In this document: positions 34,287-34,932 of the stretch, piece after piece
Numbering within the stretch: the stretch's first letter is position 1
Layout of the letters: the number at the start of each line of letters is the position of its first letter
DNA from: a virus
Lineage: Duplodnaviria > Heunggongvirae > Uroviricota > Caudoviricetes
IMG/VR virus record: IMGVR_UViG_2563366924_000005
Coordinates: 1-40,849 of that record
Reading direction: 5' to 3' (one strand)
Length of the DNA stretch: 40,849 bases
Position numbers and translations under genes: made by a program
Notes under the pieces: generated by a model
The model's input: the letters and a program-made list of their open reading frames with translations, nothing else
What the model was told of the DNA's origin: nothing
Database searches by the model: none

Positions 34287-34495
34287 AAATAATTATGCCG
34301 CATAGTCGGCCTTCTTTTGGCATAAACAACAGAATAAACACTGCACTGAATTATTTGAGGTGAGATATGGAAGAACAAGCAAACAAGATTCTCGTAGAGC
34401 TACCGCAAGCCACGCAGTGAAATGGGTGTGACATGCTCAGGCCGCCAGAAGCAACGCGGAAAATCAATTCCAGCTTATTACGATTGAGGTGAGCC

Positions 34496-34633
34496 ATGCT
34501 CAAGAAAGTCAAACGCCGACTTTACAAAGAAGGTAGATATTCATGCCAGTTGCCAAAATGCGACACAACAAAATGGAGTGTCGATGATTGGTGTAACTGG
34601 ATAGATAGATACGGAACTTGGTGGGATAAATAA
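34496..34633 (+). CDS. Small cysteine/tryptophan-rich ORF (45 aa)
   Basis: GAGGTGAG ribosome-binding site then ATG; below the ORF-track size cut-off, translated by hand (MLKKVKRRLYKEGRYSCQLPKCDTTKWSVDDWCNWIDRYGTWWDK). Confidence 0.25.
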   Translation: MLKKVKRRLYKEGRYSCQLPKCDTTKWSVDDWCNWIDRYGTWWDK

Positions 34634-34689
34634 CAGGTAACTTAAGCGGATTTATTTTCGCAGCAAACCACTTATTTGAGAGCTGATAC

Positions 34690-34932
34690 ATGAGAGTAAA
34701 AACTATGGGCGCAAGCCCATTAAGCGGTCGTATTTTTCAAGGAACATTAAACACTGAAAAAGGAATGTGGGTAGGAAAGAGAGAAGATGTCACCGATCAG
34801 GCAGTTAGGGCAGTAGCCGAACACATGATGATAAAAGACCAGAAATATGCATACGAAACGAAGGATGGCAAATGGCTGATAATAAGTCATCAACTGGTTG
34901 ATAAATTACCAGAAGAGTTTGTTGATGGTTAA
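34690..34932 (+). CDS. Hypothetical protein (80 aa)
   Basis: ORF only; early-left operon position. Confidence 0.4.
   Translation: MRVKTMGASPLSGRIFQGTLNTEKGMWVGKREDVTDQAVRAVAEHMMIKDQKYAYETKDGKWLIISHQLVDKLPEEFVDG

Follow-up and report, generated by a model that had tools for sequence, protein, structure and literature searches.

A probable mosaic junction zone downstream of N in the early-left operon of a P22-like lambdoid phage

Gene content of the early-left region

The window, i.e., the whole stretch of 40,849 nucleotides that was analysed, is derived from a P22-like (Lederbergvirus-type) lambdoid phage or prophage, and the nearest relatives of its early region are the phages Louie and Dewey. 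The plus strand is the strand of the early-left (pL) operon. The operon order given here starts with a cI-type repressor and, after the DUF7446 gene, continues with a conserved hairpin/terminator block, a cIII-like ORF, and RecT, which is encoded by the same phage. The features of the region are listed below, with the basis of assignment in brackets where it applies.

32568-33269: cI-type repressor with HTH and Peptidase_S24 domains
33762-34094, plus strand: N, complete antiterminator gene of 110 aa (ORF; Pfam N36, E=9e-23)
34008-34057, plus strand: first copy of the N-tail repeat, within the functional N (repeat search)
34083-34100, plus strand: RBS module, copy 1, the N stop/RBS/ATG junction at the native N end (repeat families)
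34098-34286, plus strand: orf62, small Cys-rich protein (ORF)
34297-34318, plus strand: degenerate terminator-like hairpin GCCG CATAGT CGGC plus T run, 3' of orf62 (read from the sequence)
34316-34348, plus strand: linker, copy 1, which together with the hairpin matches lambda 34093-34040 (repeat)
34351-34369, plus strand: RBS module, copy 2, canonical, TTATTTGAGGTGAGATATG (repeat and related loci)
34367-34420, plus strand: mini-ORF MEEQANKILVELPQATQ* of 17 codons, codons 1-12 being the 5' end of an Sf6 gene-34-type gene
34398-34407, plus strand: recombination joint in microhomology, parents ACTACTGCAA and ACTACCGCAA, window GCTACCGCAA
34399-34487, plus strand: 3' remnant of a second N allele, last 28 codons and stop, no start codon (repeat, alignment)
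34484-34498, plus strand: RBS module, copy 3, native junction of an Sf6-type N stop and gene 36 (repeat, Sf6 alignment)
34496-34633, plus strand: Sf6 gene-36 homologue, 45 aa, DUF5484 (ORF, Sf6/SfI alignment, Pfam)
34660-34680, plus strand: short N-end remnant GCAGCAAACCACTTATTTGAG (21-type ...SKPLI* codons), a fourth partial copy forming the linker before the next gene
34690-34932, plus strand: DUF7446 gene, 80 aa (ORF, Pfam)
34939-34971, plus strand: linker, copy 2, in its usual position directly 5' of bsq4 (repeat)
34966-35078, plus strand: bsq4 block, 113/113 identical to the Sf6 feature "bsq4; boundary sequence"
35711-36622: RecT

The N gene is about 83% identical to lambda N at the DNA level, and together with orf62 it forms a module that is common to the window, phage mEp213, and the IMG/VR loci L109 and L130. 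Pfam searches assigned neither orf62 nor the gene-34 homologue to a family, and an Rfam scan of 32000-37000 at E <= 1 returned no family. At the place of the degenerate hairpin behind orf62, relatives have a stronger hairpin, AGGCCGCATAGTCGGCCTTTATTTTT. A moron, a term reportedly going back to Juhala and colleagues in 2000, is an inserted gene that is autonomous in having a promoter and a terminator of its own. This model was rejected for orf62, as the orf62 ATG overlaps the N stop region, no promoter-like site was found between N and orf62, and the hairpin 3' of orf62 failed the terminator scan.

The remnant of a second N allele

The repeat search identified a direct repeat of 50 nt between 34008-34057 and 34401-34450, ungapped and 84% identical, of which the first copy is the portion of N that is common to otherwise unalignable N alleles. 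The local alignment of N with 34287-34700 scored 37, as compared to 10.6 +/- 1.4 (maximum 18) for 300 shuffles, thus placing the similarity well above background. The original prediction had described a duplicated, out-of-frame fragment of the N 3' end. The repeat itself was real, although the N coordinates of that prediction (34023-34078) were approximately 15-20 nt off, and the fragment is out of frame with respect to the local ATG at 34367 but shares the genomic phase of N (offset 393 = 131 x 3). Read in the N frame, the second copy gives YRKPRSEMGVTCSGRQKQRGKSIPAYYD* (34401-34487) and is open to a stop codon at 34485-34487 that overlaps the RBS of the following gene, and the homology to N therefore extends to this stop. 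The stretch 34399-34633 was co-linear with the 3' end of Sf6-type N and its usual neighbour, gene 36, in alignments with Sf6, SfI, and mEpX1; the remnant starts at the same place as in mEpX1 and is 97-98% identical to Sf6-type N tails. It has the character of a pseudogene, with nucleotide and protein similarity to the N 3' end, no start codon, and no N36 domain or ARM part. Its frame is closed upstream, and the N36 domain was found solely in the full N.

Comparable remnants occur in other phages. A motif scan of IMG/VR yielded 120 loci, and in about a quarter of these (29/120) the tail was not attached to a full N and lay instead 3' of nun, P22-type N, or other genes. One class, positioned after nun and a terminator, comprised 14 IMG/VR loci and GenBank mEpX1, and post-nun remnants were also present in mEp235, Kapi1, PA28, and Stx1a phages. 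As in the window, these phages carry approximately 30 codons of a lambda/21-type N 3' end after an inserted or substituted gene, and in the mEpX1 group the remnant lies directly 5' of the next pL gene. In contrast to the window, the left joint of the mEpX1 group follows the nun terminator and involves no gene-34 fragment, and phages with nun alone have no same-tail N upstream and hence no direct repeat. In mEpX1 itself (L003, JQ182727), a phage-21-like N and an HK022 Nun-like protein were observed back to back at 1781-2457, followed by the terminator and the N-tail remnant. A second class, located after an 88-aa gene behind P22-type N, included seven IMG/VR loci plus a variant, and was also found in E. 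coli 160-11H1, where PGAP annotates the fragment (ACZ5MN_RS07415) as a partial N pseudogene that is missing the N-terminus. Similar to the window, the 160-11H1 fragment lies 3' of a full N and one small gene and has gene 36 next to it, whereas the upstream gene (orf88) and the left joint differ. A third class of seven loci shares its upstream context with lambda. Lambda itself (L131, NC_001416, approximately 34430-34358) has a collapsed N-tail and N-end remnant, TTTACTACCGCAA abutting TCCACTATTTAAGGTGATATATG, upstream of orf28, which differs from the full remnant in L080 by a 61-nt deletion between AAGCCAC and AAACCAC repeats.

The remnants appear truly short, since tblastn of four N types against the 400 nt upstream of five remnant classes (L006, L003, L008, L047, and L080) gave only noise. 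In the 1.5 kb preceding the class-E remnants, no SieB homologue was found. Four remnant classes with different joints (L003, L008, L047, L080, and L006) had left ends that fell within approximately 20 nt of one another, 28-35 codons before the N stop. This clustering is not obviously predicted by pure chance; it may stem from constraint, from a bias of detection, or from longer direct repeats being unstable. Shorter remnants of seven codons were abundant. The opposite extreme, that of a long duplication by the same process, is mEp213 (L002, JQ182733), which contains two complete tandem N genes in one pL operon (2342-2674 and 3827-4099): the first is lambda-type and is followed by the orf62 of the window and by further cassettes, and the second, of the P22/HK620 type, is likewise complete, in contrast to the short remnant of the window.

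The absence of an RNA-structure signal, of an Rfam match, and of the remnant itself from many relatives indicates that the remnant most likely has no coding function and acts purely as portable homology. The remnant, the native N tail, and linker copy 1 folded no better than shuffled sequences (z = +0.2 to +0.6; +0.59 for the remnant), and a structured-RNA reading of the remnant and linker region was rejected, structure being limited to the neighbouring bsq4 block. A retained function is an unlikely explanation, either as a cis element for translational coupling to gene 36 or as a small RNAP-binding peptide of the N C-terminal domain. It would fit the arrangement of the mini-ORF, whose TGA (34418-34420) stands one base before an in-frame ATG at 34422 (TGAaATG, also present in L129 and L130) from which translation would yield 21 aa of the N C-terminus and stop at the gene-36 RBS, and it would also fit the clustered left ends of independent remnant classes and the N frame, which was open as far as the usual stop in 35/35 remnants examined. 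However, the internal ATG is not preceded by a Shine-Dalgarno sequence, classes C and D have no mini-ORF, Sf6, SfI, and E. coli A3019 have gene 36 directly behind N with no remnant, and the lambda version has collapsed. Moreover, for 5 of the 13 remnant alleles a native N tail of identical sequence exists, suggesting that they were exchanged recently rather than maintained independently, and the open frames fit recency or gene conversion, while being compatible with constraint as well.

The joint and the boundary sequences

The start of the mini-ORF is shared with Sf6 gene 34 and its homologues, which begin with ATGGAAGAACAAGCAAACAAGATTCTCGTAGAACTACTGCAAAAAGCC (MEEQANKILVELLQKAS...); 34367-34402 corresponds to that start, and the codons after the twelfth are the N remnant read out of frame. 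In a three-way comparison, L109 reads ...GTAGAACTACTGCAAAAAGCC, phage N7-type N reads ...ATTTACTACCGCAAGCCACGC, and the window reads ...GTAGAGCTACCGCAAGCCACGC. At the joint, the two parents have in common only ACTAC(C/T)GCAA, i.e., approximately 10 nt, so that a joint with few shared bases stands between two identifiable parental sequences. The left parent is represented by L109, which contains N, orf62, the hairpin, the linker, the RBS, and an intact 149-aa gene 34; window 34008-34408 is 99.0% identical to L109 and L130. The right-parent arrangement, an N tail followed by gene 36 and DUF7446, occurs in Sf6, SfI, and E. coli A3019. With both parental arrangements identified and the joint located in this microhomology, the N fragment, which had been proposed to be a recombination scar, proved to be a genuine one. 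Just 5' of the joint, the window has a G at 34398 where both inferred parents have an A, indicating that the true parental alleles were not sampled exactly.

The identical joint was present in four other phages or prophages with different flanking DNA. It occurs in E. coli ABWA45 and the IMG/VR contigs L129 and L130, all three including the G at 34398, and was also recorded in L006. In ABWA45 and L129, the DNA to the left differs and consists of a P22-type N and orf74, and the switch occurs at the RBS module. The N tail of L129 continues as 21-type ...KMKLGSKPLI*, which is followed by a 207-aa gene. L130 has its modules permuted: N ending in ...KQRGKSIPAYYD, gene 36, RBS, the gene34'::N-tail fusion ending in ...KMKLGSKLLYEG, orf62, linker, and intact gene 34. 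The N gene of L130 is the exact hybrid expected from recombination between the two tail copies of the window, and the switch between the window and L130 lies within the N tail. The flank switches in ABWA45, L129, and L130 point to crossovers inside the conserved 50-nt tail and the RBS module. An exact scan for the joint in GTDB representative genomes yielded 0 matches, and a search of 50,697 phages and 5,426 E. coli genomes found no record covering >=80% of the region; the particular combination in the window is thus rare.

It is very improbable that the N 3' end was simply duplicated in tandem and then diverged locally, without any exchange between phages. The two copies do form direct repeats that are 393 nt apart and in phase with each other, and a duplication is plausible as a first step. 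They differ by 16%, however, yet each is 97-99% identical to a different allele elsewhere: for the N copy these alleles are in L109, L130, and mEp213, and for the remnant with gene 36 they are in L130, Sf6, and SfI. The C-terminal ends are different alleles that are tied to different downstream genes.

The region from the N tail to the conserved hairpin/bsq4 block was highly variable, with 57 ORF architectures in 108 related loci, among which that of the window (orf62, gene 36, and DUF7446) was unique. The region had been proposed to be a gene-shuffling hotspot, with a search for alternative cassettes bounded by the same linkers suggested as a check; the related loci bore this out, and linker and RBS modules flank alternative cassettes in relatives.

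The recurrence of the RBS and ATG was upheld with corrected positions, 34086-34100, 34355-34369, and 34484-34498. Allowing three mismatches, the module had four matches in the window as compared to 1.1 expected, and four were reached by 1 of 100 shuffles; this excess is weak by itself and appears convincing through the related loci, in which 111 instances precede at least eight unrelated genes. The full module is GGCAGCAAACCACTTATTTGAGGTGA(G/T)ATATG, and in 21-type N genes it forms, in frame, the codons ...G S K P L I, the stop, and the next Shine-Dalgarno sequence. Copy 1 of the window (34083-34100) is a diverged form of the 21-type N end GGCAGCAAACCACTTATTTGAGGTGAGATATG. Among 127 copies of GCAGCAAACCACTTATTTGAG in related loci, 89 were at the end of an N tail and 38 were elsewhere; approximately 30 of the latter follow gene 36, one of these being that of the window at 34660-34680, and in L129 the motif stands in frame as the N terminus (21-type end). 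From these comparisons, the RBS module appears to be derived from the 3' end of N. Convergence on a strong Shine-Dalgarno sequence could account for the small excess within the window, although this is a remote prospect for the modules as a whole, because the conservation in related loci extends 12-14 nt 5' of the Shine-Dalgarno (GCAGCAAACCACTTATTTGAGGTGA.ATATG), often reaches into codons 2-3, and the upstream stretch matches the in-frame end of 21-type N genes.

The linker repeat was likewise verified and measured 33 nt (34316-34348 and 34939-34971, instead of the predicted 30 bp at 34319-34348 and 34938-34970), its two copies being 94% identical. The 21-nt core occurred exactly twice in the 40.8-kb window, as compared to 0.01 expected, and was present in 76 of 129 sequences. 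It was followed by the bsq4 hairpin TGTATTCATTCC... in 68 cases and by AATTATTTGAGGTG and a gene in nine, this gene being gene 34 or a 156-aa MTKSW gene. Copy 1 in the window ends exactly at ...GCACTG. The breakpoint between mEp213 and the window lies after orf62, inside the linker, and the two linker copies of the window bracket inserted cassettes, as do the two N tails. Lambda, on the other hand, has a single hairpin-linker-bsq4 unit (34093-33923).

The hairpin reported after linker copy 2 is real, with arms GTGTATTCA and TGAATACAC at 34971-34979 and 34990-34998, and extends to 12 bp with one G-U pair. The bsq4 block, which corresponds to lambda 34072-33923 (tL2a region), contains this hairpin (34971-34998) and another one, and its terminator stem (35061-35078) has a T run behind it; the end of the Sf6 block is annotated as lambda tL2A-like. 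The 33-nt linker overlaps bsq4 by 6 nt, and the identity to bsq4 holds for the adjoining block, not for the linker. Window 34960-35090 was strongly structured, with three hairpins and z = -4.67 relative to shuffles. Across 104 copies with very different phage flanks, the first ~98 nt of the bsq4/tL2a block were almost invariant, and variation was limited to the terminator loop and the DNA to the right of the stem. No Rfam family was assigned to the block. Since all positions are conserved, the nucleotide sequence may have a function in addition to termination, or the copies may be homogenised very frequently. A 31-aa ORF (MSLVTKQEPTCSDYWKSSLPSSVRAFLYAYQ; window 35005-35100) with a GGAG Shine-Dalgarno sequence was predicted inside bsq4, reading through the terminator stem; it was found in most related loci, with variable C-termini.

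Lambdoid boundary sequences (bsq) were reportedly described by Clark and colleagues in 2001 for HK620, and a 2004 paper by Casjens is said to be among the primary bsq papers. In the window, short sequences conserved at many lambdoid gene borders were found (the linker, the RBS module, and the N end, with the counts given above) and were flanked by unrelated alternative genes, with at least eight different N-termini after the RBS module and several successors of the linker. Identity to a reference bsq was found for 34966-35078 against Sf6 bsq4, and mosaic breakpoints fell at the RBS module in ABWA45, at the linker in mEp213, and at the N tail in L130. Similar to the bsq4 and bsq5 annotated in Sf6 (AF547987), these are short conserved borders of early-operon genes with alternative genes beside them. 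In contrast, the Sf6 annotation does not mark the linker, the RBS module, or the N-tail remnant as bsq, and two of these three are traced here to the N 3' end. The lambdoid boundary-sequence model is established and is credited to Clark et al., 2001 (cited in PMC3233612). The proposal that the whole patchwork consists of illegitimate-recombination scars appears to hold for the gene34'::N-tail joint, whereas the linker and RBS modules are conserved boundary sequences for homologous exchange.

That the joint is an assembly chimera is a negligible prospect, for while repeats can mislead assemblers, the identical joint occurs in the complete E. coli chromosome of ABWA45 and in two independent IMG/VR contigs.

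Proposed origin and implications

The region is very probably a mosaic junction zone in the pL operon with one microhomology (illegitimate) joint and several homologous exchanges at short boundary sequences, and by sequence comparison no junction other than gene34'::N-tail looks illegitimate. A single origin of this joint is most likely. It may have formed when an L109-like genome with a YYRKP-type N tail underwent unequal crossover or tandem duplication; such a simple origin would be consistent with the N of L109, the tail of which is of the YYRKP type, as at the first bases of the remnant. The joint would then have spread as later recombination reassorted the cassettes, with parts being replaced homologously. 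The exchanges in the 50-nt N tail, the RBS module, and the linker were probably catalysed by phage single-strand-annealing proteins such as RecT. Experiments have shown that mosaics are formed on short diverged homologies by Rad52-like recombinases of phages, among them RecT (PMC3945230), and one illegitimate event with repeated homologous exchange would fit both these experiments and the boundary-sequence model.

A further proposal is that the long (approximately 28-33 codons) and short (seven codons plus Shine-Dalgarno) N 3' fragments are the main portable homology that organises lambdoid exchange 3' of N and that they are kept by selection. This is doubtful, with a low likelihood at present; if true, selection would act through a cis role in downstream translation or as second-order selection for recombinational evolvability, and would account for the intact remnants and the clustered left ends.

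The region is a new instance, in a rare combination, of the known phenomenon of lambdoid mosaicism and boundary sequences, and neither its elements nor its mechanism are of a new type. It was rare for one genome to have both a functional N with this tail and a tail remnant, the combination being observed only in the window and L130, and none of the 120 IMG/VR motif loci had two copies of the motif; this rarity fits a repeat that is prone to deletion. A testable prediction follows for the 50-nt, 84% identical direct repeat: recombination across it would delete orf62 and recreate the Sf6-like arrangement of N and gene 36. For annotation purposes, the mini-ORF at 34367 and the N fragment are to be labelled as remnants, not as genes. 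The region provides a fully dissectable example of a lambdoid mosaic, with one microhomology joint for which both parents were identified, the same joint reassorted into at least five contexts, and boundary sequences that may be traced to the end of the N gene.
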